This document shows, one piece after another, positions 1 to 29,093 of a DNA stretch of 29,288 bases. Source of the DNA: Deltaproteobacteria bacterium (GTDB lineage Bacteria; SAR324; NAC60-12); assembly GCA_038150265.1 (NCBI GenBank), contig JAYOTF010000041.1:1-29288 (forward strand), written 5' to 3'. The notes beneath the pieces were generated by a model that ran no database searches, was not told the DNA's origin, and saw nothing but the letters and a program-made list of their open reading frames with translations. Position 1 is the first letter of the stretch; each line of letters begins with the position of its first letter. The position numbers were made by a program, and so were the translations under genes.

Positions 1-594
1 GGGGACTTCCACATAAGAAAGCTCCGGGTGCTTGATCAGAATTTCCAGAAGCAGTTTAAAGCCATTGGAATTGAGGGTGGGAGCCAGTTGATGAAACACG
101 ACCCGATCAATCAGGAAGAAGCCACTCAGGGGGTCAGAAACCGGTTGAGTCAGAAACCGCTGGGCGAGTTGCGTTCCCAATTCGCTGATGCGCATCCTCC
201 GGGGGTCCCATCCGTCCATGGCTCCTTCGGTCTCATACCGCGTTCCAATGACCAAGTCGGCCTGTTGACTTCTTTCCAGCAGTTCCGGAATCCGAGAGAG
301 GTCATGCTGCAAATCGGCATCCGTCACCAGGAGCTTCGGGCCTCGAGCGGCCAGAAAGCCCTCGACAATCGCGGTGCTGAGGCCCTTGCGGTTGAGGCGC
401 CGAATGAGGGTCAGGTTCGGGAACGTTGCCTGTAATTCCTGAACAACCGCCCAGGTTTCATCGGGGGAGTTGTCATCAACGACCACAAACTCGTGTGGAA
501 TCTGACGCAGCAGCTCGTCCAGCCTTTCCAGAATTTTGACAATGTTCTCCCGCTCATTGTAGGTCGGAAGAATAATGGAAAGTTGCAGATCCAT
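1..594 (-). CDS. Glycosyltransferase family 2, polyprenol/dolichol-phosphate mannose synthase (DPM1)-like; 3' end runs off the window
   Basis: Not in the ORF track. My translation from ATG at 594 is open to position 1: MDLQLSIILPTYNERENI...VVVDDNSPDETW...RKGLSTAIVEG...VTDADLQHD...LVIGTRY...SDPLSGFF...GFKLLLEIL. These are the DPM1-like GT2 motifs, including DxD. Confidence 0.9.
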   Translation of the reverse strand, partial: MDLQLSIILPTYNERENIVKILERLDELLRQIPHEFVVVDDNSPDETWAVVQELQATFPNLTLIRRLNRKGLSTAIVEGFLAARGPKLLVTDADLQHDLSRIPELLERSQQADLVIGTRYETEGAMDGWDPRRMRISELGTQLAQRFLTQPVSDPLSGFFLIDRVVFHQLAPTLNSNGFKLLLEILIKHPELSYVEVP

Positions 595-633
595 GACACC
601 AGTCTGGGCGCAGGGGCACCTGAAAGAGTGTGG

Positions 634-1878
634 CTAGGCCGAAAGGAATCGAGCGATCCGTTCGACCGCCTGGTCCATTTGAGAAAACGAAAAGGGGGCG
701 GTTTGTTGAAGCATTTCGGCTCCGGAATAGTCAACAGCGGCGGCACGAACGGCCAAACCCTCCGCTGGAAAGAAAAACGCCTCTCCGGGCAGCAAGGCCA
801 CCTGTTCTTGCTCAAGAAGCGCTTGGCAGAGTTCCGCGCTGGTGGTGATGCCACGCCTTGCCAGTGAGTCCGAAAACGGCTGGAAGTCGGGAAACAGGTA
901 GAAGCCTCCCTCGGGCTCCGGAGCATTCAGGCCGATTTCCAGAAAGCGCTGGTGCAGGTGCTGGCAGGCCGCTTGGTGGATGCGGGTGCACTGAGACACG
1001 TACGAACGAATCGCCTCATTCGCCTCAAAAGCCGGGACCGCGGCATACTGAATGGGGCTGCTGACACAGCTGAAGGTCTCACTGATCAAGGCGTTCCACG
1101 CGGGCAGAACGCCCTCCAACGCTTCCGGAAGCAAGGCGACTCCCAGCCGCCAGCCTCCCGCAGAAAAAGCCTTCGAGAGCCCGCTGGTGACGATGGTGCC
1201 TTCTGGATAAAATCGAGCCAAGCCGGTAAATCCCTCTCGGCTGTAATCGACCAGTGCGTAAATTTCGTCGGCAATCACAAGCACCTGGTGCTGACGACAG
1301 ACCGTCGCTAGGGCCTCAAGTTCTGCTGCCGTGTGGACGCTTCCGGTGGGGTTGCTCGGGTTGTTCAGAATCAGGAGCTTTTGCCCCGGACCCAGCTCCC
1401 GGCAGGTGGCATCCAGCGCATCGGCCTGCAAGCGGTACCCCTGCTCCCGCTGGGTTGCAACCAGGTGAGACGGCTTGTTGAGCAGGTGGGCCTGTGGACC
1501 ATAGCTGACCCAACTGGGGCTGGGAATGAGCAGGGGGCCTTCAAAGAGGTAGAGCAGGTTGAAGATCAACTCCTTGCTCCCCGGACCAACCACCACCTGA
1601 TGCGGATGGGCCGCGTACCCAAACACTTCGGTAAAGAACCGGGCCACGCTGGCACGAAGTTCCGGAAGCCCCAGTCCCGGAAGGTACGTCTTTTCATGAG
1701 CCGCATCTCGCAGCGCCTGAACCAGCGGTTCCGGAACCGGGAAGGGCGACTCGCCAAACCCAAGGTGACAGACCTCCTTTCCCTCGGCTCGTAGCTGTTT
1801 GGCCAACTGGTTGATCTTCAGCGTGGCTGATTCCTTCAGGCCAGCGAAGGGCGCTTGTAAGACGGGTGCCTGGCTCAT
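634..1878 (-). CDS. PLP-dependent aminotransferase class I/II (aspartate aminotransferase-like)
   Basis: Motifs GFGESPF, NNPSNPTG, IADEIY and SGLSKAFSAGGWRLG (PLP lysine); 414 aa. Confidence 0.92.
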   Translation of the reverse strand: MSQAPVLQAPFAGLKESATLKINQLAKQLRAEGKEVCHLGFGESPFPVPEPLVQALRDAAHEKTYLPGLGLPELRASVARFFTEVFGYAAHPHQVVVGPGSKELIFNLLYLFEGPLLIPSPSWVSYGPQAHLLNKPSHLVATQREQGYRLQADALDATCRELGPGQKLLILNNPSNPTGSVHTAAELEALATVCRQHQVLVIADEIYALVDYSREGFTGLARFYPEGTIVTSGLSKAFSAGGWRLGVALLPEALEGVLPAWNALISETFSCVSSPIQYAAVPAFEANEAIRSYVSQCTRIHQAACQHLHQRFLEIGLNAPEPEGGFYLFPDFQPFSDSLARRGITTSAELCQALLEQEQVALLPGEAFFFPAEGLAVRAAAVDYSGAEMLQQTAPFSFSQMDQAVERIARFLSA

Positions 1879-1879
1879 G

Positions 1880-3527
1880 TTACTTCCCCCAGGAGTCGCG
1901 CAGGGTCACGATTCGATTGAAAACCGGGCGTGCCGCTTGATGATCCCTGACATCAGCACAGAAGTACCCCAGCCGCTCAAACTGGTAGGCCTGCCCGGGC
2001 TCCGCTGCCTGGAGGCTGGGCTCCAGCTTGACGTCTGGCAGCACCTCAACCGAGTTCGGGTTCAGGTCCTTCAGGAAGTCCTTGTCGGGCTGCTCGGCGC
2101 CCGGCGCGGCGGTGGTGAATAAACGGTCATAGAGGCGAACCTCAGCAGTCAGCGCATGCTCTGCCGACACCCAGTGAATGATGCCCTTGACCTTCCGGCC
2201 CTCCGGTTTTTTCCCACGCGCGGTGTCCGGGTCATAGTGGCACTCCAGCTCCACGACTCTTCCCTCGTCGTTCTTGAGGACACGGTCGCAGCGAATCACA
2301 TAGGCATTGCGCAGGCGCACCTCCCCTCCGGGCGTGAGGCGTTGAAAGCCGTCTGGCGGTGTCTCCTCAAAGTCGCTTTGCTCAATGTAGAGGGTCCGGG
2401 ACAGCGGGACCAGGCGGCGTCCGCGTTCCGGAAATTTCTGGTGGACCGGAGCATCAATCTCCTCCACCTCTCCCTCCGGCCAGTTGGTCAGGGTGACCTT
2501 CAGCGGGTGCAGCACGGCCATGGCGCGCGGGGCCTTCGGGTCGAGGTCTTCCCGAATGCAGTCCTCGAGCACGGTCATGTCAATGTGGTTGTCTGCTTTG
2601 GAGATGCCGATCCGTTCCGCAAACAAACGGAGGCTCTCCGGAGTGAAGCCCCGGCGCCGCAGTCCGGAAAGTGTGGGCATGCGGGGGTCATCCCAACCGG
2701 CGACGTGTTGCTCCTGAACCAGCTGAATGAGGCGGCGCTTGCTGAGCACCGTGTACTGGAGGTTCAGGCGGCTGAACTCAATCTGCTGGGGGTGGCAGGG
2801 CACGTCGAGGTGCGCCAGCACCCAGTCATAAAGCGGACGGTGGTCTTCAAACTCCAGGGTGCAGAGCGAGTGCGTGATGCCTTCCAGAGCGTCCGAGAGG
2901 CAGTGGGTGTAGTCGTACATCGGGTAAATGCACCACCTTGCGGATGCGGTACAGCACCGGATCCCGCAGGTTGATGTTCGGGGAAGCCATGTCGATCTTG
3001 GCCCGGAGCACGTGCGCACCATCGGCAAATTCACCGGCTCGCATCTTCCGGAACAGCTCCAGGTTTTCAGCGACGCTCCGGTTGCGGTGCGGGCTCTCCA
3101 CTCCAGGCTGCGTCAGGGTTCCGCGTTGCTCGCGGATCTGCTCCTGCGTTTGGCTGTCCACATACGCAAGGCCCTGCTCAATGAGCGACTCGGCAAAGGC
3201 GTACAGGGGCTCAAAGTAGTCCGACGCGTGCGTGAGGCGGTCGTCCCAGTCAAAGCCCAACCAGCGGACGTCTTCCAGAATGGACCGGACGTACTCCTCA
3301 TCTTCCTTGACGGGGTTGGTGTCGTCAAAGCGCATGAAGCACGTTCCGGAAAATTCTTCGGCCAGTCCAAAGTTCAGGCAAATCGATTTAGCATGCCCAA
3401 TGTGGAGGTAGCCGTTTGGCTCCGGAGGGAAGCGGGTGACCACCTGGGCGTGCTTCCCGGTGCGGAGGTCCTCCTGGACAATGTTGCGAATGAAGTGAGT
3501 GGGGCGGGTGGCTTCTGGAGAGCTCAT
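1880..3527 (-). pseudogene. glnS: Glutamine--tRNA ligase, split by a frameshifting deletion near 2936 (true pseudogene or assembly error)
   Basis: The 5' frame gives [17 protein letters not shown]...MRFDDTNP...[23 protein letters not shown] different frame continues [29 protein letters not shown]...VLSKR...[17 protein letters not shown]...FERLGYF...[11 protein letters not shown]. Confidence 0.9.
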
Positions 3528-3670
3528 GCAGAGTCGCGTGACAAAAGAAACAGGTTCAGTAAAAAGCGAGCAAAACTACCACAATTTTTCCTGAAGTAAC
3601 AAGTGCTTTGCAAGCAGCCGGTGCTTCAGGACAGCAAAGCTTCTGCAATTGGTGTTCCGGAAACGAGGAC

Positions 3671-4795
3671 TCAGCGCGCCAGGGGCGAGGCGCGGAGGAC
3701 AAAACGCTGCTGGGCGGAGAGGGTCTCTTGCACCTTTCCGTTGTTGCGGTCCAGCGTGCTGTACGACGCCCAGAACATCAGGTTGCTGCCGTCTGCCGCA
3801 TCACAGGCGCTGGCTCCGGAAGAGGCCTGATCGCATTCCGGTGTATCCGAGAGGGGGTCATGCTCAAACCCATTGCTTTCGGAGGTGTGGTACAGCCCCA
3901 GAAAGTGCCCGGTCTCATGGGCCGCCGTCTCTCCCAGCAACTGCTCGTCCAGCCCAGAGCCGGTGCTGTGGGCCGCCAGTGAGAGCAAGACGCCATTGAA
4001 GCTCCCCTTGAGGCCAAGTGTTCCCGGAATGCCGGAAGCCATCCCCAGGTAGGTCTGGTTGCTGAAGTCCTCCACAAAAAACAGATTGACGCCATCGTCC
4101 TGCCCGTTGGTGACCAGGGCTCCGGTATCGCTGTCCTGAAAGGACGCCCGTACTGTGGTGAAGCGGCTGTCATTATCTAAAGAAGTCACGGCCTTCAGGT
4201 CAATCGTAATGTCGTTGATCTGGAAGATGCGGGTCATGACCGCGAGGGCTGCGTCCAGGTCACTGGCGGAATACTGGGTACCCGTCAGGTACGGTCGAAC
4301 GGTCAGGGTGGCAGTGGGCTGCAGAGGCGCTTGGCGAGTGAAAATGAAAGGCTCGGAATCGCCCCAGTACTCCACGCGCCAGGGGCCAGCTTCCGGAAGG
4401 GTCCCCTGGGTGACCGGAAGCGGAAAGGCCGAGAAGCCGCCCCAGTTTTGCTCAAAGGCACCAAAGGTGTCGGAACAGTTGGGAGACATCAGGCGGAACA
4501 GGTCCTGACCAGAGGGCTGAATGAGCTGGAGCATCGTTGCGGAGCTGCCCAAGACGGCGATGGAGAAGGACACGGTCCCCTCCGGAATGGTGAAGGAACT
4601 GCCCCGCGTGGCACTTCGGGCGGCAGAAAGCTCCGGCGGACGGCTGCTGCTGAGGGTGGGGCAGAGCGACTCCGGATTGGTGCTGACCTGCTCAAAGCCA
4701 TCACTTCCGGACAATCCGGAGCTGATTTCCGAGGAGCAACCTGCGCTGAGAAGCAGCAGACCGAGGAGGAGGATTAGACCGTTTCGGAGGCCCAT
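3671..4795 (-). CDS. Lipoprotein zinc metalloprotease, metzincin (M43/pappalysin-like)
   Basis: Signal peptide with lipobox LSAG-C, the zinc motif HETGHFLGLYH (HExxHxxGxxH) and a Met-turn NLMF. Confidence 0.8.
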   Translation of the reverse strand: MGLRNGLILLLGLLLLSAGCSSEISSGLSGSDGFEQVSTNPESLCPTLSSSRPPELSAARSATRGSSFTIPEGTVSFSIAVLGSSATMLQLIQPSGQDLFRLMSPNCSDTFGAFEQNWGGFSAFPLPVTQGTLPEAGPWRVEYWGDSEPFIFTRQAPLQPTATLTVRPYLTGTQYSASDLDAALAVMTRIFQINDITIDLKAVTSLDNDSRFTTVRASFQDSDTGALVTNGQDDGVNLFFVEDFSNQTYLGMASGIPGTLGLKGSFNGVLLSLAAHSTGSGLDEQLLGETAAHETGHFLGLYHTSESNGFEHDPLSDTPECDQASSGASACDAADGSNLMFWASYSTLDRNNGKVQETLSAQQRFVLRASPLAR

Positions 4796-5325
4796 TGTTC
4801 CAACAATTCGTGGTAGTGGTCCAAATCCGGAACCGTCAGGTTCGGGTCCTTCCCCAATTCGTCGTAGTGCCGCAGCTGCAACGCGGCTTCAAAGTGAGGG
4901 TTCATCTGGAAACGCTTGGCCTCTGAGGCCGTCAGGGGACCTCCCTGCAGCTGCAGGCTCTGAATGGACGCCTCGGAAAGCTGCCGCAGGTAGTCCGGGT
5001 TGGTGGTACACAGGTAACGCTTGGCAAGAACATGAAACCGGATCGGACCGGTGACGGCTTTGGGAAAGTGCTGGCTCAGGTAATTGGCGCCGATTTCTTC
5101 ATGAACCGTGTCCACACCACGGTCCGCAGCGTCTTCTCCCAGACCGTGGATGAGGTGTCCGTAGTCGTGAAGCAGAGCAGCCAGCACCAGGGCTTCTGGC
5201 GCCTGGTCCTGTTCTGCCAGGTGGGCACACTGCAGAGAGTGTTGCAGCACCGTCACGCCTTCGCCATAGCTGGCCTGCCCTTCGGTTTGCAACGTGTGGA
5301 GGATGTCAGTCACTGCGGTACTCAT
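4774..5325 (-). CDS. HD-domain diiron organophosphonate oxygenase, PhnZ/TmpB-like
   Basis: Motifs YGEGVTVLQHSLQCA, LLHDYGH, HEEIGA, FHVLAKRYL, LSEASIQSLQLQGG and LRHYDELGK match the PhnZ family. Confidence 0.85.
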   Translation of the reverse strand: MSTAVTDILHTLQTEGQASYGEGVTVLQHSLQCAHLAEQDQAPEALVLAALLHDYGHLIHGLGEDAADRGVDTVHEEIGANYLSQHFPKAVTGPIRFHVLAKRYLCTTNPDYLRQLSEASIQSLQLQGGPLTASEAKRFQMNPHFEAALQLRHYDELGKDPNLTVPDLDHYHELLEQWASETV

Positions 5326-5381
5326 GAATGTCTCTTCTTGAAAGCAACAGGCGGGGAGGGGTTCCGGAAGCCTGCCGGGCC

Positions 5382-6143
5382 CTAGCGGCGGCGCAGCAAA
5401 ATGGTTGGCAGGTGCAACTGATCGCTCTTGTAGTCTCCGGACAGCACCAGCATCAAGAGGTTCACGTAAAGCCGCAAGCGAACTTCATCATCGGCGGCAT
5501 TTCCGGTGACCCGTACCGGTGAGTCCCGCAGGCGAGACCAGCTCCACTTGGCCGAATCATTCAGGATCATGATGGGGCGCCCGCCCTCTTCCAGCAGGTG
5601 GATGGGCGTGCCTCCCGGGCCCAGCAGCATCCGCTTTTCCAGGAGGTAAAAGCTGAAGGACAGGGTGTGCTGGCGATTGAGGGGAGCCCAGCTGCTTTGG
5701 GGGTACAGCACGCGCGCCCAGCTCTTCCAGGCCTCAGAGGACGAGTCCTCCACGTCGGTGCAGACATCCAGGAACAGCGTCCCACCGTGGTTGAAGAAGT
5801 CCCGCCAGCGCAGCTTGTCCTCAAGACGGTTGGCCGGCGGCGGGCCACACATTTCCAGGTGCAGGAAGGGGGTCTGGAGTGCGAGTGGGTCGGCAAAGTC
5901 CACCCATTGCTGCTCGGAGCTGAGCGCGATGGTGGTCCGGCCCTCAATGGCAACCTTGGCACGGGCGATCGAGATCGGCTCCGGAGGGGCGCCAAATGTC
6001 AGGGTTTGCCACGTGAGGGCATCCAGGGCCTGGATCCGTTCAGGAGTCAGCGGAGTGGCTTCCGGTGCCTCGGTTGGTTGGGCGCCGAGCAGCGGAGTCA
6101 GGCTGAGCCACAGCAGGGCGCCGAGGAACCCGTTCCGGATCAC
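5382..6143 (-). CDS. DUF4159-domain protein with N-terminal signal/TM segment
   Basis: GGTLFLD, HTLSFSFYLL and the C-terminal VNLLMLVLSGDYKSDQLHLPTIL motif typical of DUF4159. The GTG start overlaps the coaBC stop (GTGA). Confidence 0.75.
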   Translation of the reverse strand: MIRNGFLGALLWLSLTPLLGAQPTEAPEATPLTPERIQALDALTWQTLTFGAPPEPISIARAKVAIEGRTTIALSSEQQWVDFADPLALQTPFLHLEMCGPPPANRLEDKLRWRDFFNHGGTLFLDVCTDVEDSSSEAWKSWARVLYPQSSWAPLNRQHTLSFSFYLLEKRMLLGPGGTPIHLLEEGGRPIMILNDSAKWSWSRLRDSPVRVTGNAADDEVRLRLYVNLLMLVLSGDYKSDQLHLPTILLRRR

Positions 6144-7390: not shown

Positions 7391-7414
7391 GAAAGGTAGC
7401 TCGATTTGGGGTCA

Positions 7415-8734: not shown

Positions 8735-8924
8735 GCGCCTCTGAGGCAGGAAGAACGTCTGGTTTCAGGGCGAAGGAGACGCGCACCTTGAAACTTTGAG
8801 GAGAGCTGATTATTCAATAGTGTTCCTCACATTGAGCATTTGAGGCTCACAGGGACGGAAGCAGGAGCCGGCGAGTTGCTCGTGATCCCCCCTGAGGCGC
8901 CTTGGGATTTTGCCAGAATCATTC

Positions 8925-10144: not shown

Positions 10145-10150
10145 CTCATT

Positions 10151-13479: not shown

Positions 13480-16400
13480 ATGACGCTCAGGAAGGTTTCA
13501 CTCGACGACAAGTACACACTCGAATCCGGATACGCGTTCTTAACGGGCATCCAGGCCCTTGTGCGCCTGCCGATGGTTCAGCACCGTCGTGACCAGGCAG
13601 CCGGACACCACACCGCTGGTTTTGTCACCGGTTACCGTGGCTCGCCTCTGGGAACGCTGGATCAGCAGATGCGCAAGGCCCAGAAGCTTCTGGAGCAGCA
13701 CGAGGTGCGCTTTCACCCCGGTGTGAACGAAGACCTGGCGGCCACGTCGGTGTGGGGAACCCAGCAGGCGCATCTTTTCGGCGGGCAAAAGTACGACGGG
13801 GTCTTTGGCATGTGGTACGGCAAGGGGCCGGGGGTGGACCGCTCTGGTGACGCCCTCCGGCATGCGAACCTCGCCGGGACGATGCCCCTGGGGGGAGTGC
13901 TGGCCCTGCTCGGAGACGACCACACCTGTGAGTCGTCAACGACCTGCCACCAGAGCGAGTTTGCGATGATGGACGCGATGATTCCGGTGCTCAATCCTTC
14001 TGGTGTGCAGGAGATCCTCGACTACGGCCTCCTGGGCTGGGCGCTGTCTCGCTTCTCCGGAACCTGGGCGTCGCTCAAGTGCATTCATGACACCGTGGAG
14101 TCCACCGTTTCCGCAGAGGTCAACCCAGACCGGGTGTCCATCATTCTTCCTGATGACCCCGCCTGGTCGGAGGTCCACATTCGCTGGCCCGACACGCCGC
14201 AGGCGCAGGAGCAGCGCCTTCATGAAGTCAAGCTGCCGGCGGTGCTGGCGTTTGCCCGGGCCAACGCGCTGGACCAGCTGGTCTGGCCGGCGCCGGAGGC
14301 CAGCCTGGGAATTGTTTCCACCGGAAAGTCCTTCATGGATGTCCGCCTGGCGCTGGAAACGCTTGGCCTGGATGAAGCCCGGGCTCGGCACCTGGGGGTG
14401 CGGCTGTACAAGGTGGCACTCGCCTGGCCGCTGGAGCCCAATGGCCTGCGCGCGTTTGCTCGGGGCCTCCGGAGGGTGCTGGTGGTGGAAGAAAAGCGCG
14501 GGCTGCTGGAGCCTCAAATCAAGGAAGCACTTTACGGCCTTCCGGAACCACCGCTGGTGGAAGGGAAGCAGGATGCTTCCGGGCGCCGGCTCTTTCCGTC
14601 CACGCTTTCTCTTGACCCCAACCAGATTGCCATTGCGATTGGCGAACGCATCCTGGAGCAGGCTCCGGATGAGGCGTTGCGGGCCAGGGTGGAGGAGCTG
14701 CGGCAGGCGTTGGCCACAGAGCTGCCTGCGGACCCAATGAGCCGGCTGCCGTACTTCTGCGCCGGGTGTCCGCACAATACCTCTACACGTGTTCCGGAAG
14801 GCAGCCGGGCGCTGGCTGGAATCGGGTGCCACTACATGGTGCAGTGGATGGGACGCGGCACCGCCGGCTTCACGCAAATGGGAGGCGAAGGCGCGAGCTG
14901 GATTGGCGAGGCGCTCTTCAGCAAGACCCCGCACGCGTTCCAGAACATGGGCGACGGCACCTATTACCACTCCGGACTGCTCGCGCTGAGAGCAGCGGTG
15001 GCAGCCAACGTTAATGTGACCTTCAAGATCCTCTACAACGACGCGGTGGCCATGACCGGCGGGCAGCCGATGGACGGGCCGCTGACGGTGCCACAAATGA
15101 CGCAGCAGGTGCTTGGCGAAGGCGTCCGGCGCGCGGTGGTCGTGACCGATGAGCCCGAAAAATACGGCTCTGGCTCCGGACTCGCCAGGGGCGTGACCGT
15201 CCACCACCGCAAGGAACTGGAAGCCCTGCAGCGGGAATTTCAGGACCTCAAGGGGGTGACCGTCATCATTTACGACCAGACCTGTGCCGCAGAGAAGCGC
15301 CGCAAGCGCAAACGAGGAGAGTATCCCGATCCCGACCGTCGGATCTTCATCAATGAGGCTGTGTGTGAAGGGTGCGGCGACTGCGGAGTGAAGTCCAACT
15401 GCGTCGCGGTTTTGCCGCTGGAAACGGAGCTGGGCCGCAAGCGGATGATTGATCAGTCGGCCTGCAACAAGGATTACTCCTGTGCGAATGGGCTGTGCCC
15501 AAGCTTCGTCAGCGTTTATGGGGGCACGCTCCGGAAGCGTCAGGCCGTGCAATTGGGAGACGCCCTTCCGGCCCTTCCGGATCCGGAGTTGCCTCCGATT
15601 CATGGAACGTACAACATTGTCGTTACCGGTGTCGGTGGCACGGGGGTGGTGACCATCGGCGCGCTGATTGGCATGGCCGCGCACCTCGAGGGCAAAGGCG
15701 TGGGCATCATCGACATGATCGGCCTGGCCCAAAAGGGTGGGGCGGTGCTTAGCCACCTGCGGGTCGCGGAACGTCCGGAAGAGGTCCATGTGCCACGGAT
15801 TGCCGCTGGCTCTGCAGACCTCATTCTGGGGGGCGACCTGGTGGTGTCCGGAGGCAGCAAGGCGCTTTCCACCGTTCAGCCCGGCCGGACTCGGATGGTC
15901 GTCAACAGTTATGAAATGGTAACCGGTGACTTTACCCGCAATGCCGACTGGCTCTTTCCGGGAATGGAGCTGAAGCAGAACATTGAGGCGGTGGCCGGAG
16001 CCGAGCAGACGGAGTTCATTGATGCCACCCGAATGGCGACGCAGCTGCTGGGAGATGCGATTGGCGGGAACCTCTTCCTGCTCGGGTTTGCCTTTCAGCG
16101 GGGGCGGTTGCCGCTGAGCGCCGAATCGCTGGAAACGGCGATTGAGCTCAATGGGGTGGCGGTGGCGATGAACCTCCAGGCCTTCCAGTGGGGGCGGCAT
16201 GCGGCGGTTCACCTGGGAGCGGTCCGCAAGGCCGCCTTTGCGCAGGAGCAACCGAGCCCGCCGGCTCCGAAGAGCCTGGAGGAGCGGATTGCCCACCGTG
16301 AGCAGCAACTGACGGCGTACCAGAGCCGCTTCTATGCGCAGCGTTACCGGAAGCTCGTGGAGCAGGTCCGGCACGCCGAGCAGCGCCTGGGGAACGATTC

Positions 16401-16935
16401 CACTGCCCTCACGGAAGCCGCCGCGCGGTACTACTACAAGGTGCTGGCGTACAAGGACGAATACGAGGTGGCGCGGCTCTACACCGATGGCACCTTCCAG
16501 AAGAAGCTTGAGGAAACCTTTGAGGGCACGCCCGACCTTCGCCTGCACCTGGCACCACCGCTTTGGTCTCGGCGAGATCCGCAGTCCGGAGAGCCCATCA
16601 AGCAAACCTTTGGGCCGTGGATGTTTCAGGCGATGAAGGTGCTGGCCGCCTTCAAGTTCCTCCGAGGCACACCGCTGGACCTGTTTGGACGAACCGAGGA
16701 GCGGCAGATGGAACGACAGTTGATCCGGGACTACGAAGCCCGGGTGGCGCGGTTGCTTCCGAAGCTGACGGCCGAGTCACACGCCACGGCAGTGGCATTG
16801 CTGTCGCTGCCAGAGCACATCCGGGGGTTCGACTTGGTGAAAAAGCGCCACGTTGCCGAAGTGGAAGCCCAGGAGGCGCAGCTCTGGAGCCAATTGGAAG
16901 CAACCCTGCAGGCTCCTGAAACGGTTTCCACCTGA
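13480..16935 (+). CDS. Indolepyruvate:ferredoxin oxidoreductase family protein (fused alpha/beta single chain)
   Basis: GYRGSPLG, YGKGPGVDRSGD, FCAGCPHN, TPP motif GDGTYYHSG, ferredoxin CEGCGDC...CNKDYSC...CPSF, GVGGTGV, GLAQKGG and YKDEYEVARL. Confidence 0.95.
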   Translation: MTLRKVSLDDKYTLESGYAFLTGIQALVRLPMVQHRRDQAAGHHTAGFVTGYRGSPLGTLDQQMRKAQKLLEQHEVRFHPGVNEDLAATSVWGTQQAHLFGGQKYDGVFGMWYGKGPGVDRSGDALRHANLAGTMPLGGVLALLGDDHTCESSTTCHQSEFAMMDAMIPVLNPSGVQEILDYGLLGWALSRFSGTWASLKCIHDTVESTVSAEVNPDRVSIILPDDPAWSEVHIRWPDTPQAQEQRLHEVKLPAVLAFARANALDQLVWPAPEASLGIVSTGKSFMDVRLALETLGLDEARARHLGVRLYKVALAWPLEPNGLRAFARGLRRVLVVEEKRGLLEPQIKEALYGLPEPPLVEGKQDASGRRLFPSTLSLDPNQIAIAIGERILEQAPDEALRARVEELRQALATELPADPMSRLPYFCAGCPHNTSTRVPEGSRALAGIGCHYMVQWMGRGTAGFTQMGGEGASWIGEALFSKTPHAFQNMGDGTYYHSGLLALRAAVAANVNVTFKILYNDAVAMTGGQPMDGPLTVPQMTQQVLGEGVRRAVVVTDEPEKYGSGSGLARGVTVHHRKELEALQREFQDLKGVTVIIYDQTCAAEKRRKRKRGEYPDPDRRIFINEAVCEGCGDCGVKSNCVAVLPLETELGRKRMIDQSACNKDYSCANGLCPSFVSVYGGTLRKRQAVQLGDALPALPDPELPPIHGTYNIVVTGVGGTGVVTIGALIGMAAHLEGKGVGIIDMIGLAQKGGAVLSHLRVAERPEEVHVPRIAAGSADLILGGDLVVSGGSKALSTVQPGRTRMVVNSYEMVTGDFTRNADWLFPGMELKQNIEAVAGAEQTEFIDATRMATQLLGDAIGGNLFLLGFAFQRGRLPLSAESLETAIELNGVAVAMNLQAFQWGRHAAVHLGAVRKAAFAQEQPSPPAPKSLEERIAHREQQLTAYQSRFYAQRYRKLVEQVRHAEQRLGNDSTALTEAAARYYYKVLAYKDEYEVARLYTDGTFQKKLEETFEGTPDLRLHLAPPLWSRRDPQSGEPIKQTFGPWMFQAMKVLAAFKFLRGTPLDLFGRTEERQMERQLIRDYEARVARLLPKLTAESHATAVALLSLPEHIRGFDLVKKRHVAEVEAQEAQLWSQLEATLQAPETVST

Positions 16936-19577: not shown

Positions 19578-19584
19578 GCGCCCG

Positions 19585-21862: not shown

Positions 21863-21959
21863 GAAGGGGGTACGGTAAAAAGCAACCCGGGTCCAACCCG
21901 ATGGACGCCAGCATACCGAGCCTTGGCTTCGAGGAAAAGTCTGGAAATCACTTTGCGGC

Positions 21960-21986
21960 TAAAGTTTTTCGATCAGGTGCCGATGA
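21960..21986 (+). promoter_or_regulatory. Sigma28 (FliA) promoter of flagellin
   Basis: TAAA-N15-GCCGATGA against consensus TAAA-N15-GCCGATAA: exact spacing, one mismatch, ending 51 nt before the flagellin ATG. Confidence 0.88.
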
Positions 21987-21997
21987 AGGAGTTAACG

Positions 21998-22035
21998 CGG
22001 CGGGAAGCCGATTGAGACCCCCTTCAGGGAAACTG
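21998..22035 (+). promoter_or_regulatory. Two GGA-loop hairpins in the flagellin 5' UTR, putative CsrA sites
   Basis: CGGC-GGGAA-GCCG (21998-22010) and CAG-GGAAA-CTG (22025-22035). The second overlaps the Shine-Dalgarno. Confidence 0.55.
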
Positions 22036-22037
22036 TT

Positions 22038-23642: not shown

Positions 23643-23649
23643 TTCGGTT

Positions 23650-23673
23650 CGCCCGGAGCAGGTGCTTCGGGCG
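23650..23673 (+). terminator. GC-rich hairpin after flagellin (possible terminator)
   Basis: CGCCCGGAGC-AGGT-GCTTCGGGCG, a 10-bp stem with one G-U pair just after the stop. It lacks a clean U-tract. Confidence 0.45.
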
Positions 23674-23964
23674 CTCCCCCCTCCCAAGTCTCCAGAAGCC
23701 TCCCCCTTTTCTGCAGCATTTTTCAACACCCTGAATCGAAGGCCATCGGTTCAAGGGCGGGATCCCAACCTGCGCTGGGACGCCTCCAAAGCGGCCGTCC
23801 CCACCAATCGCTCAGCCCACTCTGCCCGCCATTTGGCTCATGCGATGGCCCTGAGGGCTCCTCCCAGCAGCAAATTCTTGCAAATTCCATATTTTTCCAC
23901 CGGCCGTTTGTGTTATGATCGGAATTGAGCCGTTTGATTGTAGCAATGTTTTTTCAGAGGTTGA

Positions 23965-25260
23965 TTGGAGGAGAACAGGCTTTTTGATGGATGGGAGCGC
24001 GCCCTGCTGCTCTCGGTACAACTTCCCGAACAGACCCCCGAAGACGTGAGGCATTCACTGGAGGAACTCCGCTCGCTGGTGGAGTCGCTGGAATGCGCCG
24101 TTGTTGACCAGATCGTTCAAACCCGTTCCCAGATCCACCCGGCCCTGTTTTTTGGCAAGGGCAAGATGCAGGAGATCAAGCACGCCAAGCACCACCTTGA
24201 GGCCGACGCGGTGATTGTGGACCGGGCGCTGAGCCCCAAGCAGGTCCAGAACCTGGAGCGTGAGCTGAAGTGCCCGGTGCTGGACCGGACGCAGGTCATT
24301 TTGGAAATCTTTGCCCGCAACGCGCGCTCACGAGCGGCGCAGCTGCAGATTCGGCTCGCTCAATCGGAGTACCTGTTTCCGCGACTGGTGGGCCTCTGGA
24401 AGCACCTGGACCGAGAACGGGGGGGCATTGGGGTGTCGCGTGGAACCGGGGAGAAGCAGATTGAGAAGGACCGGCAGTACCTGCGCAAGCGCATCAACAC
24501 GCTCAAGGAGGACCTCCGGAGGCTGGAGCGCGAGCGAGACACGCAGAAGAAGCGCCGGGCGCACTGCCTGCGCGTGAGTCTGGTGGGGTACACCAATGCC
24601 GGCAAGTCCACCATCATGAATGCGCTGACCAACGCTGAACTCATTGCGGAAGATCGGCTGTTTGCGACCCTGGACTCGACCACGCGTTTGCTGGAAGAAG
24701 GCATCCGGCCCAAGATTCTCCTTTCAGACACCGTGGGGTTCATCCGGAACCTCCCCACGGAGCTGGTGGCAGCGTTTCGGTCAACGCTGGAGACGGTTCG
24801 CGATGCAGACCTGCTGCTGCATGTGGTGGATGCCAGTGGCGATTACGAGGACCACATCAGCACGACCCTGGGGGTGCTGGATGACCTGGAGGCGAACTGC
24901 ATTCCGGTGCTGCTGGTGTTCAACAAGATCGACCAGCTGGAGCCGATTGAGCTGGCCCTGATGCGTCACCGCTTTCCGGAAGCCGTTTTTGTCTCGGCCC
25001 TGGAGACCGAAATTTCGTTGCTGCAGGACCGCATTCGGGAGTTCTTTGAGCAACGCATGCAGACGGTGACGGTGCAGCTTGATTACCAGCAGTCTCAGCA
25101 ACTTTCGGAAATTTATGAGTGGAGCCGCGTCGATGAAATCGACTACGAGGAGGCGGGAATCCGTTTGCGCCTGACGACCCTTCCGGGGTACCTCAATCGC
25201 CTCCGGAGCCGCCTGGCGCCACACTTCAAGGAGCTACCGGCCGAGGAAGTGGTCGCATGA
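23965..25260 (+). CDS. hflX: GTPase HflX
   Basis: LSPKQVQNLE, DRTQVILEIFA, RGTGEKQIE, G1 GYTNAGKST, LFATLD, DTVGFI and NKID. TTG start with GAGGT upstream; candidate extended -10 TGTTATGAT at 23911-23919. Confidence 0.95.
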   Translation: MEENRLFDGWERALLLSVQLPEQTPEDVRHSLEELRSLVESLECAVVDQIVQTRSQIHPALFFGKGKMQEIKHAKHHLEADAVIVDRALSPKQVQNLERELKCPVLDRTQVILEIFARNARSRAAQLQIRLAQSEYLFPRLVGLWKHLDRERGGIGVSRGTGEKQIEKDRQYLRKRINTLKEDLRRLERERDTQKKRRAHCLRVSLVGYTNAGKSTIMNALTNAELIAEDRLFATLDSTTRLLEEGIRPKILLSDTVGFIRNLPTELVAAFRSTLETVRDADLLLHVVDASGDYEDHISTTLGVLDDLEANCIPVLLVFNKIDQLEPIELALMRHRFPEAVFVSALETEISLLQDRIREFFEQRMQTVTVQLDYQQSQQLSEIYEWSRVDEIDYEEAGIRLRLTTLPGYLNRLRSRLAPHFKELPAEEVVA

Positions 25261-26096
25261 AGCCCACGTTTCGGATCGGCGTGGCGCAGGTGAACGCCCG
25301 GGGAGTGCTTTCGGAAAATTTGGCAGTGGCACAAAAGCTGGTGGCCCAGGCGGCTGAAGAAGCCGTGGACCTGGTTGCGTTTCCAGAGATGTTCCTGCAC
25401 CTGGGCGCCAGCCGGGAGGAAAAGTTTGCGGTCGCTGAGCCGGTAGATGGCCCCCTGGTGCAGCAGTTTCAGGAGTGGGCGCAGCGCTTCAACCTGTCCA
25501 TCTTGATGGGAAGCCACTATGAGCCGATTCCGGAAGATCCGGAGCGACTCTACAACACGTCGGTGCTGCTGGACCGGACGGGAACGGTGGCCGCCGTCTA
25601 CCGGAAGATCCACCTCTTTGACGTCCCCACCCTTGATGTCCTGGAGTCCTCCCTGATTGCCCCGGGCTCTGAGCCGGTTGTGGTGGAGCATGAGCTGGCC
25701 TGCCTGGGGCTGAGCATTTGCTACGACCTTCGTTTTCCAGAGCTGTACCGCTTCCTGGCCGGCGCCGGCGCCGAGGTGCTGCTGGTGCCAGCAGCCTTTT
25801 ACCTGGAGACGGGCAAGGATCACTGGCTCCCGCTCCTGCAGGCCCGGGCGATTGAAAATCAGGCCTACGTGGTGGCTCCGGCTCAGTGGGGCTGGCACTA
25901 CGGCACCCGCCGTTCCTTCGGAAACTCCGTTATCATTGACCCCTGGGGCACCGTGCTGGCCACGGCTCCGGAAGCCACGACGCTCATCACGGCCCGCCTG
26001 GAGCACGACCGCCTGCAGGCGGTCCGGGAACGCGTCCCGGCCTGGCCGCACCGACGTCCTGCCCTTTACCCCACTCCTCACCTTCAAACCGACTGA
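25257..26096 (+). CDS. Carbon-nitrogen hydrolase, Nit1/deaminated glutathione amidase-like
   Basis: Catalytic triad motifs FPE, YRKIHLFDV and ICYDLRFPE, plus TGKDHW..LLQARAIENQ and IDPWG. ATGA overlap with hflX. Confidence 0.9.
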   Translation: MKPTFRIGVAQVNARGVLSENLAVAQKLVAQAAEEAVDLVAFPEMFLHLGASREEKFAVAEPVDGPLVQQFQEWAQRFNLSILMGSHYEPIPEDPERLYNTSVLLDRTGTVAAVYRKIHLFDVPTLDVLESSLIAPGSEPVVVEHELACLGLSICYDLRFPELYRFLAGAGAEVLLVPAAFYLETGKDHWLPLLQARAIENQAYVVAPAQWGWHYGTRRSFGNSVIIDPWGTVLATAPEATTLITARLEHDRLQAVRERVPAWPHRRPALYPTPHLQTD

Positions 26097-26110
26097 TCCG
26101 CCCGCGTCTC

Positions 26111-27394
26111 ATGGATAAATTTTACGTTGAAGGGGGCGTCCCCCTGAATGGTCAACTGACTCCGTCCGGAAACAAGAACGAGGCCCTGCCTGTGTTGGCA
26201 GCGACCCTGCTGACCGAACAGGTGGTGCGCCTCCGGAACGTCCCGGAAATCCTGGACATTGCGACCATGCGAGAGCTGCTGGTCAGTCTGGGAGCCCGGG
26301 TGGAGGAATGCGGCGACCACGCCTTTGAGTTTGAGGCAAAGAGCATTTTGGGGCATGCCCCCGAGTTTACCAAGGCAGCGCGCATCCGAGGGTCCTTTCT
26401 GCTGGCTGGGCCGATGCTGGCGCGGTTTGGCAAGATCTCCCTGCCGGTTCCCGGAGGCGACCAGATTGGCCTGCGTCCGGTGCAGACGCACCTGCTGGCG
26501 CTGCAGGACCTGGGGGCTCGGATTGAGGTGGAGGGGGGCATTTACCGCATGACGACGGATGGCCTCAAGGGGGCTTCCATTCAGCTGGATGAAGCCAGCG
26601 TGATGGCTACCGAAAACGCGGTGATGGCGGCTGTGCTGGCTGAGGGCGACACGGAAATCTACAACGCTGCGTGTGAGCCTCATGTTCAGGGACTGTGCCG
26701 GATGCTGGTCAGCATGGGCGCCCGGATTGAAGGCATTGGCACCAACTGCCTGCGCATCCAGGGGGTGCCCACCCTCAACGGGACGGACTACCGCATCCAG
26801 CCGGATCACATTGAAGTGGGGTCCTTCATTGGGCTGGCGGCGATGACACGTGGAGAGGTGTGCATCAAGAACGCGGGGGTGGAGCACCTCCGGATGGTGC
26901 GCCTGATGTTTGAGCGCCTCGGTGTGACCACGCGCATCGAAGGCGCGGACCTGTGGGTGCCGGGCGAGCAGGACCTGCTGGTGCGTCCGGATACGCCCGG
27001 AGGCATTCCCAAAATTGACGATGGCCCGTGGCCGGCGTTTCCGGCTGACCTGACCAGCATCATGACGGTGACGGCCACGCAGTCCCGCGGCGCCGTGCTG
27101 ATTTTTGAGAAGATGTTTGAAAGCCGCTTGTTCTGGGTGGACAAGCTGATTTCCATGGGGGCTCAGATCATCCTCTGCGATCCGCACCGGGCTGTGGTCT
27201 CCGGCCCCTCGCCGCTTCATGCAGCGAAGGTGACCTCGCCAGACATCCGGGCCGGCATGTCACTGCTCCTGGCTGCCCTGACCGCCAAGGGCACCACTGA
27301 AATTGGCAACGTTTCGCAGATCGATCGGGGATACGAACGCATTGAGCATCGCCTCAACGCGGTCGGCGCCCGCATCCGGCGCGTGAAGGAATAG
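26111..27394 (+). CDS. murA: UDP-N-acetylglucosamine 1-carboxyvinyltransferase (Cys->Asp variant)
   Basis: SGNKNEALP, RGSFLLAGP, PGGDQIGLRP, SVMATEN, NAACEPHV, PWPAFPAD, FESR, DIRAG and IDRGYE. Confidence 0.95.
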   Translation: MDKFYVEGGVPLNGQLTPSGNKNEALPVLAATLLTEQVVRLRNVPEILDIATMRELLVSLGARVEECGDHAFEFEAKSILGHAPEFTKAARIRGSFLLAGPMLARFGKISLPVPGGDQIGLRPVQTHLLALQDLGARIEVEGGIYRMTTDGLKGASIQLDEASVMATENAVMAAVLAEGDTEIYNAACEPHVQGLCRMLVSMGARIEGIGTNCLRIQGVPTLNGTDYRIQPDHIEVGSFIGLAAMTRGEVCIKNAGVEHLRMVRLMFERLGVTTRIEGADLWVPGEQDLLVRPDTPGGIPKIDDGPWPAFPADLTSIMTVTATQSRGAVLIFEKMFESRLFWVDKLISMGAQIILCDPHRAVVSGPSPLHAAKVTSPDIRAGMSLLLAALTAKGTTEIGNVSQIDRGYERIEHRLNAVGARIRRVKE

Positions 27395-27454
27395 CCCCGC
27401 TCCTTCCCCCTTTTCGCTCCCCTCCTCCCCCTCACTCCCTGTCCCCTGATGGTC

Positions 27455-27492
27455 AGCAGCTCCCCTTCTTCAGGGGAGCTGTTACAATTTTT
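27455..27492 (+). terminator. Rho-independent terminator of the hflX-nit-murA operon
   Basis: Stem AGCAGCTCCCCT-TCTTC-AGGGGAGCTGTT followed by ACAATTTTT. Confidence 0.65.
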
Positions 27493-27525
27493 CTGAAAAA
27501 TTTCTTTTCATTTGAAAAATTTCTT
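27486..27525. repeat. AT-rich direct/inverted repeat cluster (putative operator)
   Basis: TGAAAAATTTCTT at 27494-27506 and 27513-27525; palindrome AATTTTTC-T-GAAAAATT at 27486-27502. Confidence 0.6.
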
Positions 27526-27595
27526 ACTAAATCATCCTGACAAACAGGGAGCACATGGGGTGCACCCTGATTTCACCATCAACAGGGGGTTTGTT

Positions 27596-28777
27596 ATGGA
27601 TATGACCAATCATCGGATGCGCTTTGGGGTGTTTCTTGCGCCGTTCCACAAGCCGGGCATCAACCCAACGCTCGCGATTCACAACGACCTGGAACTGGTG
27701 CAGTGGCTGGACCGGTGTGGCTACGATGAGGCGTGGATTGGGGAGCACCACTCTGCCGGTTCGGAAATCATTGCGAGTCCGGAAATCTTCATGTCAGCTG
27801 CTGCGCAGCACACCCGGACGATCAAGCTGGGAACCGGGGTGGTCAGTGTGTCGTACCACAATCCGCTTTGGGTGGCCGAGCGCCTGGTGATGCTGGATCA
27901 CCTGACGCGTGGGCGGGTGATGCTGGGAATGGGGCCGGGCTCGTTGCCGACCGATGGCGCAATGATTGGCCTGTCTCAGTCACAAACCCGGGGGCTGCTT
28001 GAGCAAGGGCTCGACATCATCATGCAACTGCTGACGACCGAGAAGCCCGTGACGTTCAAGAATGACCGCTGGGAGCTGAACGAGGCCCGCCTGCACCTCC
28101 GGCCGTACTCGAATCCGCTCTTTGACGTCACCGTAGCGGCAGTGGCCTCTCCGACCGGGCCCAAGCTGGCAGGCCGCCATGGCATTGGGTTGCTCTCCAT
28201 TGGCGCCACCACAGCGGCTGGCTTTGATGCCCTGGCCCTGCACTGGAACGTCATGGAGGAGCAGGCCCAGTACTATGGCACCACCGTGGACCGTTCCAAG
28301 TGGCGGCTGGTGGGACTCTGCCACATTGCCGAAACGCTCGATCAGGCGTACCGGGATGTGGAGTATGGAATTGAGCAGTGGTTTGATTACTTCCAGGCGG
28401 TGGCCGCGTTCCCGCAAATGGCGGTTCCGGGGAACAACATCAAGGAGATGATCGAGTTCATCAATGAGTCTGGATTTGGCGCCATCGGGACTCCGGAGAT
28501 GTGCACGAAGCAGATCAACCGGCTCTGGGAGCAGTCCAACGGAGGCTTTGGCGCTTACCTGATGCTGGCGCACAACTGGGCCAGCCCGGAGGCGACCAAG
28601 AAGAGCTACGAGCTGATCGCCCGGCACGTCATGCCTCAGTTCCAGGGGCAGGCGCATTCCACCAGCCATGCTGCCGATCGGGCTCGGTCGGCTCGTCCGG
28701 AGCTCGCAGCGGTCCACTCCAAAGCTGTGGAGGTGGCGACCCAGAAGTATCAGGACGAAGTGACTTCCCGCAGCTGA
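27596..28777 (+). CDS. LLM-class (luciferase-like) flavin-dependent monooxygenase, limonene 1,2-monooxygenase LimB-like
   Basis: MRFGVFLAPFH...NPT...GYDEAWIGEHHS, IKLGTGV, LDHLTRGR and GPGSLPTD. Start is ATG 27596 or 27602 after AGGGGG, rather than the TTG at 27512. Confidence 0.88.
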   Translation: MDMTNHRMRFGVFLAPFHKPGINPTLAIHNDLELVQWLDRCGYDEAWIGEHHSAGSEIIASPEIFMSAAAQHTRTIKLGTGVVSVSYHNPLWVAERLVMLDHLTRGRVMLGMGPGSLPTDGAMIGLSQSQTRGLLEQGLDIIMQLLTTEKPVTFKNDRWELNEARLHLRPYSNPLFDVTVAAVASPTGPKLAGRHGIGLLSIGATTAAGFDALALHWNVMEEQAQYYGTTVDRSKWRLVGLCHIAETLDQAYRDVEYGIEQWFDYFQAVAAFPQMAVPGNNIKEMIEFINESGFGAIGTPEMCTKQINRLWEQSNGGFGAYLMLAHNWASPEATKKSYELIARHVMPQFQGQAHSTSHAADRARSARPELAAVHSKAVEVATQKYQDEVTSRS

Positions 28778-28786
28778 CTCCTCCCT

Positions 28787-28805
28787 CGGGAGCGTCCGGC
28801 TCCCG
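28787..28805. terminator. Hairpin between convergent genes (possible bidirectional terminator)
   Basis: CGGGAGC-GTCCG-GCTCCCG, a perfect 7-bp stem in the 28-nt gap between convergent stops. Confidence 0.45.
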
Positions 28806-29093
28806 TCAGCTCTTCAAGATGGAGTGCGAGCGCTTGGCGCTGGAGACCAGGGTCAGGGACCGTCGGTTTCCTCGCAGGCGCCAGTGCTCCATGAACTCGT
28901 CCATCACATCGACTGCCTCCTCCCACATCACTTCTTCGGCCATGAGGGTCAGGTTGGGACCGTCTGCATACAGGGCCATTTTCTGCTTGGGCCAGATTTC
29001 CTGAAAAATCAATCGAGCGGTCTCCTCCGAAATGGGCTGCTCAAAGAGGAAGGAAACGTTGATCGTCTCAAGAGAGGGGTCCGGATGCGCCAT
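28806..29093 (-). CDS. Hypothetical protein (95 aa)
   Basis: From ATG 29093 the translation looks protein-like (MAHPDPSLETINVSFLFEQPISEETARLIFQEIW...) with GC3-biased codons. The upstream extension to 29210 looks non-coding. Confidence 0.6.
   Translation of the reverse strand: MAHPDPSLETINVSFLFEQPISEETARLIFQEIWPKQKMALYADGPNLTLMAEEVMWEEAVDVMDEFMEHWRLRGNRRSLTLVSSAKRSHSILKS

Follow-up and report, generated by a model that had tools for sequence, protein, structure and literature searches.

Genome-wide enrichment and helical phasing of the palindrome TCCGGA suggest a putative protein reader acting on the whole chromosome

The hexameric palindrome TCCGGA pervades a 29,288-nucleotide contig deposited as Deltaproteobacteria bacterium (JAYOTF010000041.1, assembly GCA_038150265.1; the whole stretch is referred to below as the window), and according to our analysis it is a property of the entire genome, where it occurs in many-fold excess in all three codon frames and between genes, and where its copies prefer to lie on the same face of the DNA helix. 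Such a genome-wide phased pattern suggests a putative reader protein that acts on the whole chromosome. We propose, at a probability of about 0.45, that TCCGGA is a weakly selected binding site of a predicted abundant and dimeric chromosome protein. A preliminary description of the window had likened the word to HIP1, the highly iterated palindrome (GCGATCGC) of cyanobacteria, and offered as its possible causes a methyltransferase with biased repair, a site of a nucleoid protein, or a tag for DNA uptake and recombination. No published description of TCCGGA enrichment in this lineage was found in the literature, supplements excluded.

Abundance and independence from coding

The genome (G000; 3.39 Mb in 87 contigs, the longest of 214 kb, 97.8% complete, 61.3% GC, with the window as contig C41) contains 9711 copies of TCCGGA, that is 2.86 per kb or one per 349 bp, and since the window contig has 2.97 per kb, the enrichment is not confined to it. 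The window itself holds 87 copies (about one per 337 bp) against 10.56 ± 3.04 in dinucleotide-preserving shuffles, none of 100 of which attained that number (the maximum was 18), and 20 copies of the extended form TTCCGGAA against 0.62 expected (shuffle maximum 3); the manual estimates of the preliminary description, about 87 against about 10 and about 20 against fewer than one, were thus accurate. Inside 23 called genes lie 81 of the 87 window sites, in frames 20/21/40, and 6 are outside the calls; these 81 represent 40.7% of the 199 places in the window where the encoded proteins permit the word.

Markov models of order 0, 1, 2, 3 and 4 predict 1118, 1284, 2457, 4068 and 7959 copies in the genome, which gives observed-to-expected ratios (O/E, with the order of the model as suffix where needed) of 8.7, 7.6, 3.95, 2.39 and 1.22. 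The excess is clear for orders 0 to 3 and small at order 4, the order that the preliminary description had named for a possible refutation. The last value is no refutation, because the order-4 expectation derives from the frequencies of TCCGG and CCGGA, two pentamers that already carry the signal and are themselves over-represented 3.1-fold. By z-score TCCGGA is by far the top hexamer of the genome; second among palindromes in O/E0 is CTGCAG with 3.15, and AGGCCT, a palindrome of the same composition, as well as other GC-rich palindromes, show neither enrichment nor phasing with TCCGGA. Around CCGG, T precedes in 44% and A follows in 44% of the cases, and the joint T..A context has a frequency of 0.238 against 0.195 under independence, so that the half-sites contribute almost independently and a multiplicative half-site model fits. 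Among other words of this genome, CTAG stands out by its strong depletion (O/E0 0.05), and words with TA are scarce; words related to GTAC appear high only against the order-1 model.

Coding sequence does not account for the excess. A within-gene shuffle of synonymous codons, which preserves every protein and the codon usage of each gene, leaves 2067 ± 39 sites in coding DNA where 8592 are observed (O/E 4.2, far from the ratio of 1 that a codon effect would give), and a shuffle of whole codons leaves 1262, the amino-acid-preserving expectation being 1.6 times that number. Each frame is enriched 3.3- to 5.1-fold, with 2015/2361/4216 sites observed against 516/726/826 expected, and TCCGGA occupies 8590 of the 20,776 protein-permitted places genome-wide (41.3%). 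Enrichment in uncalled gaps of 20-150 bp matches that of genes (136 sites against 17.0 expected), and spacers are enriched whether convergent (O/E0 9.4), tandem (7.3) or divergent (6.2). With the two shuffles and the permitted-place null described below, an artefact of codons or peptides is ruled out, and the earlier statement that no single amino-acid pair can explain a HIP1-like genome-wide signal is borne out by all frames, by the spacers and, as seen below, by many genomes.

The sites are spread evenly: in 631 windows of 5 kb their mean number is 14.5 with a variance of 16.5, and each such window has at least 3. Fewer of the permitted places are filled close to start codons (0.23 over the initial 30 nt, 0.43-0.44 past 300 nt). 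Over gene classes of codon score occupancy is flat (0.38-0.43), which rules out a link to expression or to foreign origin. The extension of the word is weak: the preceding base is T in 32% of copies, where 19% is the background, A behaves likewise at +1, and past -3/+3 the base frequencies are at background. Mean flank identity of neighbouring copies is 0.28, and as the flanks have no information beyond -1/+1, a dispersed repeat element of the repetitive extragenic palindrome (REP) type or the miniature inverted-repeat transposable element (MITE) type was rejected as the source.

Helical phasing, graded variants and conservation

The spectrum of site-to-site distances has its peak at 10.5-10.6 bp, with an amplitude of 37 against 4.7 ± 2.3 (largest 12.6 in 200 runs) under a null that preserves the gene and frame of each site. 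Because the permitted places are themselves weakly periodic (about 10.0-10.3 bp), we used a stricter null in which only the occupancy of amino-acid-permitted places is reshuffled within gene and frame, and under which the amplitude is 37.2 against 11.1 ± 2.8 (largest 17.6 of 300). Preferred spacings are 9, 19, 31, 42, 52, 62, 73, 85, 94, 105, 114 and 125 bp; the modulation depth is 0.38 at 12-62 bp, falls to about 0.10 at 216-266 bp and then goes into noise. Spacings of 11-26 bp are avoided, those of 11-17 bp being at 0.16-0.44 of the permitted-place null, a 3- to 6-fold depletion, and the 9-bp spacing is at the null level genome-wide (40 observed, 40.2 expected).

The periodicity is specific to this word. 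Its phasing score is 7.8, well above the scores of the other 150 among the 151 commonest hexamers (median 1.18, 95th percentile 1.91), of which the three next-best all overlap TCCGGA; a general periodicity of alpha-helices or dinucleotides is thereby ruled out. Phasing is seen in pairs of sites in the same codon frame (depth 0.275) and in different frames (0.213), in both halves of the contigs, and without the 11 of 4475 pairs that have similar flanks; this removal, together with the flank analysis, eliminated repeats and tandem repeats as its source. It recurs in relatives: in 788 kb of a genome from another genus (G013) the period is 10.4 and the amplitude 4.00, not reached in any of 2000 permutations, and in 800 kb of a congener (G002) the period is 10.4 and the amplitude 2.85 (p = 0.006), to be compared with 3.86 ± 0.48 in 800-kb subsamples of G000.

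Imperfect copies behave in a graded manner. The abundance of NCCGGA descends from T (O/E0 8.7) through C (2.3) and A (1.6) to G (1.4), and the one-sided variants are phased with perfect sites in the same order, with amplitudes of 3.6 for C, 1.47 for A and 0.5 for G. Bare CCGG, which has neither T nor A, is not phased to the sites (amplitude 0.82), nor are unrelated palindromes. This T>C>A>G grading looks like the binding-energy landscape of a symmetric reader and unlike the all-or-none specificity of an enzyme. A spaced variant, TCCNGGA, was considered and discarded, as its phasing stems only from TCCCGGA and TCCGGGA, which contain the half-site. A-tracts of G000 have a weak periodicity of about 11.2 bp at a depth of 1-4%, about a tenth of the approximately 24% of TCCGGA; in the sample of G013, AAA/TTT and AAAA/TTTT are periodic at 10.4-10.5 bp with a depth of 4.6-7%.

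Conservation was analysed between G000 and G002, which have 81% nucleotide identity over 371 kb aligned. Of 1062 aligned sites, 455 are intact in the congener, a rate of 42.8% that compares with 32.4% over all hexamers. At positions with an unchanged amino acid, codons are retained more often inside the motif than elsewhere: 0.639 and 0.464 for GGA, 0.758 and 0.594 for CGG, 0.636 and 0.549 for CCG, 0.643 and 0.485 for NNT, 0.92 and 0.55 for GTC. Wobble positions in the motif are thus 9-37 points more conserved than in the same codons elsewhere, TCC excepted. The look at relatives that the preliminary description had called for has in this way returned a modest excess of intact sites together with wobble retention.

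Distribution, candidate methyltransferases and sites of the window

Enrichment was surveyed in 88 species genomes of the phylum, which is probably SAR324, as the count of TTCCGGAA relative to a reversed control word. The ratio is at least 4 in 33 of the 88 genomes and at least 10 in 19. At the level of families, at least 4-fold enrichment is found in 27 of 45 genomes of f1, in the only genome of f4, in 5 of 19 genomes of f7 and in none of 19 genomes of f2. Genus g2 (9 species, ratios 0.6-1.1) and the genera g5, g8 and g9 of the same family are not enriched, and a 170-kb sample of one g2 genome (G014, 44.6% GC) has a TCCGGA O/E0 of 1.14. In G013 (56.7% GC) TCCGGA is again the top hexamer, with O/E0 7.6. 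Seven genomes from other families of the phylum (G083, G084, G081, G085-G087 and G029) avoid TTCCGGAA, at no more than 0.1 of the control word. One of them, G083, has a CCGG O/E of 0.07 and only 31 copies of TCCGGA in 3.4 Mb; an intact C5 methyltransferase is found in 4 of 5 same-pattern genomes of its family besides G083, and in most avoiders. AGGCCT was considered as an alternate HIP of those other families and ruled out, its O/E1 in G083 being 1.46 and the contrast being due to CCGG avoidance.

Among 80 named loci with relatives of an IOR-like protein of the window, the median TCCGGA O/E0 is 0.62 and only two exceed 3. The locus of the closest relative (71% identity) has 18 TCCGGA against 4.3 expected. 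A further locus, contig CAJJCY010000004.1, titled as an uncultured SAR324 cluster bacterium metagenome-assembled genome (MAG), has 36 in 23.5 kb against 3.8 at 42% GC; it offers a public handle for the phenomenon, gives indirect support to the SAR324 label, and demonstrates that high GC is not required for the enrichment. GC content as a cause is ruled out by this contig (O/E 9.4) and by G013 (57% GC, O/E 7.6).

Some viral records are rich in the word too, and may copy the code of the host; the viral loci of the survey were chosen for carrying two copies, by which their ratios are inflated. A record of 110 kb (G089, locus L246, CheckV 100%) has 364 TCCGGA (3.3 per kb) and zero AGGCCT, and one of 38 kb (G090) has 60 against 4. 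In a third (G088, 249 kb) the copies are clustered at 74-79 kb with spacings in steps of 9 or 18 bp, by appearance a tandem repeat within a gene. No N4/N6 methyltransferases were found in five TCCGGA-rich viral records.

Methyltransferases of the families PF00145, PF01555, PF02384 and PF02086 were searched across the genomes. G000 has no family match to the C5 methyltransferase PF00145, Vsr PF03852 or DUF559 PF04480 (the controls matched known genomes), nor to the MutH or N6_Mtase families; among the 19 genomes enriched at least 10-fold, an intact C5 methyltransferase gene is present in 1 and fragments in 2, and the remaining 16 are without a match. The neighbour words expected from deamination, TCTGGA/TCCAGA, are not depleted (O/E0 2.57, O/E1 1.51). 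A CCGG or TCCGGA methyltransferase coupled to Vsr-like biased repair, which the preliminary description had put forward, finds no support in these results.

Two genes of G000 encode N4/N6-type methyltransferase-like proteins, both with the SPPY motif, on contigs C45 and C51. The gene of the C45 protein (258 aa) lies next to that of a retron-type reverse transcriptase; G001 is the only other genome with this methyltransferase (71% identity), and the enriched G002 lacks it. The order at this place (C45 about 1400-4600; locus L081 35-3159) is the reverse transcriptase of 469 aa (retron St85 family, 4e-59), then the methyltransferase and an open reading frame of 311 aa without family match. The C51 gene (C51 248-1384; full form in G002, L094 451-2643) encodes a protein of about 730 aa in which some 300 residues of RPRREDRPRYED-type charged repeats are fused to a C-terminal methyltransferase-like domain, and which matches the PADLOC type II methyltransferase model (1e-35) and, over the motif, N4-cytosine methyltransferase chains in the PDB. 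It is spread order-wide, has 48-49% identity in the non-enriched g2 and g9, is present also across family f2, and was not found in the enriched G011, G017 and G018. In an alignment of ten sequences 95 of 444 columns are invariant, and motif IV begins variously with S, C, N or R inside a single enriched genus. The C51 gene is a conserved housekeeping gene, and since its product has weak matches to RNA m2G methyltransferase families, an RNA substrate is plausible. Strongly enriched genera have the lowest numbers of PF01555 matches, and large non-enriched genomes the highest (26 in G006). As far as family and orthologue matches tell, no methyltransferase tracks the enrichment, word specificity being something that cannot be read from sequence; the search for an orphan enzyme suggested earlier has ended with no C5 or Vsr match and with two N4/N6-type genes that do not follow the trait.

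The sites of the window are collected in Table 1; they lie among ordinary housekeeping genes (aminotransferase, CoaBC, PhoH, ABC transporter, the IOR-like oxidoreductase, flagellin, HflX, EPSP synthase and others). The three frames that had been quoted for sites of the IOR-like gene, the two intergenic sites and the three close pairs are all there as first described. A Glu/Gln-tRNA synthetase gene of the window is divided between two overlapping open reading frames in different frames, which is a frameshift or an assembly error.

Table 1. TCCGGA sites of the window and genes mentioned in the text
Feature	Position	Strand	Remarks
Field of 87 TCCGGA sites	283..29085	.	spans whole window, among housekeeping genes
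TCCGGA starts, part 1			284, 721, 917, 1124, 1661, 1730, 2427, 2637, 2663, 3047, 3345, 3421, 3656, 3815, 4392, 4581, 4671, 4706, 4715, 4826, 5363, 5436, 5980, 6134, 6248, 6378, 7248, 8022, 8479, 8962
TCCGGA starts, part 2			10398, 10517, 10560, 11109, 11430, 11497, 11977, 12530, 12567, 12690, 13525, 14056, 14468, 14541, 14664, 14793, 14971, 15175, 15530, 15576, 15582, 15774, 15847, 16585, 17079, 17454, 17505, 17960, 18315, 18644
TCCGGA starts, part 3			19020, 19190, 19830, 20105, 20160, 20222, 20329, 20493, 20631, 20891, 21270, 23275, 24515, 24743, 24975, 25202, 25529, 25538, 25967, 26165, 26232, 26889, 26986, 27778, 28492, 28696, 29080
20 copies of TTCCGGAA	283..25535	.	starts 283, 1123, 1660, 1729, 2426, 3046, 3344, 3655, 4391, 5362, 11496, 12566, 14540, 14792, 17504, 18643, 20328, 21269, 24974, 25528
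IOR-like gene	13480..16935	+	2-oxoacid:ferredoxin oxidoreductase-like
Site in codon frame 0 of IOR-like gene	13525..13530	+	TCC GGA, Ser-Gly; (13525-13480) mod 3 = 0
Site in frame 2 of IOR-like gene	14541..14546	+	xxT CCG GAx; (14541-13480) mod 3 = 2
Site in frame 1 of IOR-like gene	15530..15535	+	xTC CGG Axx; (15530-13480) mod 3 = 1
Intergenic TTCCGGAA	3655..3662	.	9 bp 3' of stop codon of gene 3671-4795(-)
Intergenic TTCCGGAA	5362..5369	.	within 56-bp spacer between 4774-5325(-) and 5382-6143(-)
Close site pair	4706..4720	.	start-to-start 9 bp (4706/4715)
Abutting pair TCCGGATCCGGA	15576..15587	.	start-to-start 6 bp (15576/15582)
Close site pair	25529..25543	.	start-to-start 9 bp (25529/25538)
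Glu/Gln-tRNA synthetase gene	1880..3527	-	two overlapping open reading frames, different frames
Synthetase, first reading frame	2847..3527	-	catalytic-domain positions 1-167
Synthetase, second reading frame	1880..3034	-	catalytic-domain positions 179-313 and both anticodon-binding domains

Possible reader, rival explanations and known systems

Taken together, the abundance of the word, its independence from coding, the same-face rule, the exclusion at short range and the grading of variants are most consistent with a symmetric binder that acts chromosome-wide. Such a reader would be an abundant symmetric DNA-binding protein, nucleoid-associated or another enzyme that acts everywhere on the chromosome; each half-site, read T-C-C toward the dyad, would add binding energy nearly independently, and neighbouring bound copies would interact or need a common facing, by which the same helix face would be favoured and the opposite one disfavoured. 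Weak selection over some 10,000 sites, or a binding-coupled bias of equal effect, would hold about 41% of the permitted places as TCCGGA, and individual sites would turn over between species. We infer that the reader is a protein and that the driving force is selection rather than repair. Among the options of the preliminary description the nucleoid-protein site is favoured by phasing and graded variants, with the binder itself only predicted. More tentatively, and with less confidence than in the binding site as such, it would be possible to suggest a sequence-specified bacterial chromatin in many members of the phylum, in which a predicted dimeric protein sits at about 10,000 TCCGGA and assembles along one helix face; if so, the genome sequence would encode where, and in which rotational register, the chromosome is coated.

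A number of observations weigh against the proposed binding site. The excess of intact sites in the congener corresponds to weak constraint per site (rank 127 of 735), TCC codons have no extra conservation in the motif (0.616 against 0.610 elsewhere), and conservation does not depend on phase, as 76 of 202 in-phase and 73 of 157 out-of-phase sites are kept; by conservation, selection cannot be told apart from repair biased towards the motif. No A/T-G/C helical pattern, and thus no signature of wrapped DNA, surrounds the sites in G000. Of the few reader families tried there, the histone fold gave no match, and neither did the Bse634I/Cfr10I family, for which the control was silent too. Phasing was not seen in the first 400 kb of G002 alone (p = 0.77), and it is not visible in the window alone, where 13 of 30 pairs are in phase, too small a sample. 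The gene calls are a crude set of our own derived from open reading frames (2622 genes, 86% of the genome).

Other explanations have to be considered against the same evidence. An orphan methyltransferase could mark TCCGGA with N4-methylcytosine or N6-methyladenine, and either a methyl-reader that binds pairs of sites on one face, as SeqA does at GATC, or methyl-dependent repair could then build up and phase the sites. The two SPPY proteins of the genome would be its candidates, in particular the C51-type protein with its PADLOC match, which alone is shared by most strongly enriched genera, and in cyanobacteria HIP1 and alternate HIPs do co-occur with cognate methyltransferases (Elhai 2015, PMC4390886). 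We nevertheless consider it unlikely: the C51-type protein occurs in non-enriched genera and a non-enriched family and was not found in three enriched genomes, its motif IV is unstable, the C45 enzyme is retron-linked and limited to two genomes, the C5 methyltransferase, Vsr, DUF559, MutH and N6_Mtase families are without match in G000, the methyltransferase repertoire runs in the opposite direction to the enrichment, and neither the unphased bare CCGG nor the graded variants resemble all-or-none specificity. No more likely, in our opinion, is a neutral context-biased mutation or repair by which near-cognate words would become TCCGGA more frequently than they arise from it, the sites having no function. 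It would agree with nearly independent half-sites and an order-4 ratio of only 1.22, with flat occupancy over gene classes, with the equal fate of in-phase and out-of-phase sites, and with a high turnover, 57% of sites not being conserved between the congeners. However, a bias acting on a single hexamer cannot yield a 10.5-bp phase at 30-250 bp, an exclusion at 11-17 bp or a phasing that falls with variant strength, no one-off neighbour is depleted like a precursor, and no Vsr-type gene was matched in G000.

The same low probability is given to an intrinsic structural element without specific reader, in which TCCGGA would be bendable or kinkable and phased copies would give the chromosome a preferred curvature or supercoil geometry, an idea already put forward for A-tracts in phase. 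In prokaryotes, dinucleotides and A-tracts with a period of 10-11 bp have a damped same-face spacing that is selected and whose function is unknown (Atzinger and Lawrence 2020, PMC7537859), and the same-face preference of TCCGGA, damped over about 250 bp, resembles it; A-tract phasing in G000 itself is weak, with a depth of 2-4% near 11.2 bp against 24% for TCCGGA. The sites are uncoupled from A/T-G/C periodicity, though, one exact hexamer is chosen, AGGCCT and other GC-rich palindromes having neither enrichment nor phasing with it, and relatives of similar base composition lack the enrichment. More improbable still is a self-DNA tag by which TCCGGA-bearing DNA is preferentially taken up or recombined. 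HIP1 was recently tied to transformation efficiency and to secretion and uptake genes (Rodriguez-Cruz et al. 2026, PMC13756078; bioRxiv 10.1101/2024.09.10.611283), and the even, Poisson-like density of TCCGGA, with no 5-kb window below three sites, would suit such a role. Yet a 6-bp word is a poor discriminator, and helical phasing with half-turn exclusion is not predicted by a tag. The known uptake sequences, DNA uptake sequences (DUS) and uptake signal sequences (USS), are of about 9-12 bp and non-palindromic and have matching competence machinery; TCCGGA has neither their length nor their asymmetry. Finally, an origin of the signal in the protein sequences, in codon usage, or in repeats or the assembly was tested and rejected, and its probability is negligible. 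The proteins are somewhat rich in permissive di- and tripeptides, as is evident from the two coding nulls (2067 against 1262), and the permitted places alone are weakly periodic, but the 4.2-fold excess is measured over the amino-acid-preserving null in all frames and extends to spacers, the phasing is well above the permitted-place null and is kept in cross-frame pairs and without repeats, and the trait is found in 33 of 88 independently assembled genomes.

For thirty years highly iterated palindromes have posed a puzzle, with cyanobacteria as almost their only known source; TCCGGA adds a second, unrelated lineage. The 88 genomes, with 33 enriched and 7 strongly avoiding TTCCGGAA, form a natural comparison set, and the word, as a strong marker of composition, can help to bin these genomes and to recognise foreign DNA in them. 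With no methyltransferase seen to track the word, the association of such palindromes with methylation becomes looser; helical phasing and the grading of variants point to a protein reader and are not reported in the HIP1 papers cited here.

Two better known phenomena differ from this one in mechanism or in sign. Very-short-patch repair by Dcm/Vsr shapes CCWGG-related words in E. coli and is similar in that a repair tied to a short palindrome can shift word frequencies genome-wide; it differs in that G000 has no C5 methyltransferase or Vsr match, its deamination neighbours are undepleted, and Dcm/Vsr gives no phasing. Avoidance of restriction sites, to which palindromes of 4-6 bp are usually subject, concerns the same class of words, as G083 illustrates, and is of the opposite sign in G000, with an 8.7-fold excess rather than depletion. 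TCCGGA resembles periodic dinucleotides and A-tracts in that its copies favour one helix face, with a period close to the helical repeat that is damped over distance, and it is distinguished from A-tracts as one exact hexamer, with a depth of about 24% against 1-4% in G000 and a period of 10.55 against about 11.2 bp.

The closest parallel is HIP1. Both are short GC-rich palindromes in many-fold genome-wide excess, present in every frame and in intergenic DNA, lineage-wide yet lost in some members, with a modest conservation excess and without agreed function; HIP1 sites are conserved beyond neutral expectation, and a periodicity at 10-90 kb has been reported for them (Xu et al. 2018, PMC5861425). 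Of the features by which HIPs are recognised, TCCGGA displays the genome-wide excess, the independence from coding and the modest conservation beyond neutral, and no methyltransferase family or orthologue was seen to accompany it in the way described for HIPs. What is new in comparison with HIP1 is the different word, of 6 instead of 8 bp, a density about three times higher (1 per 350 bp), another phylum, no tracking methyltransferase, and phasing at the 10.5-bp helical repeat in place of a periodicity of tens of kilobases.

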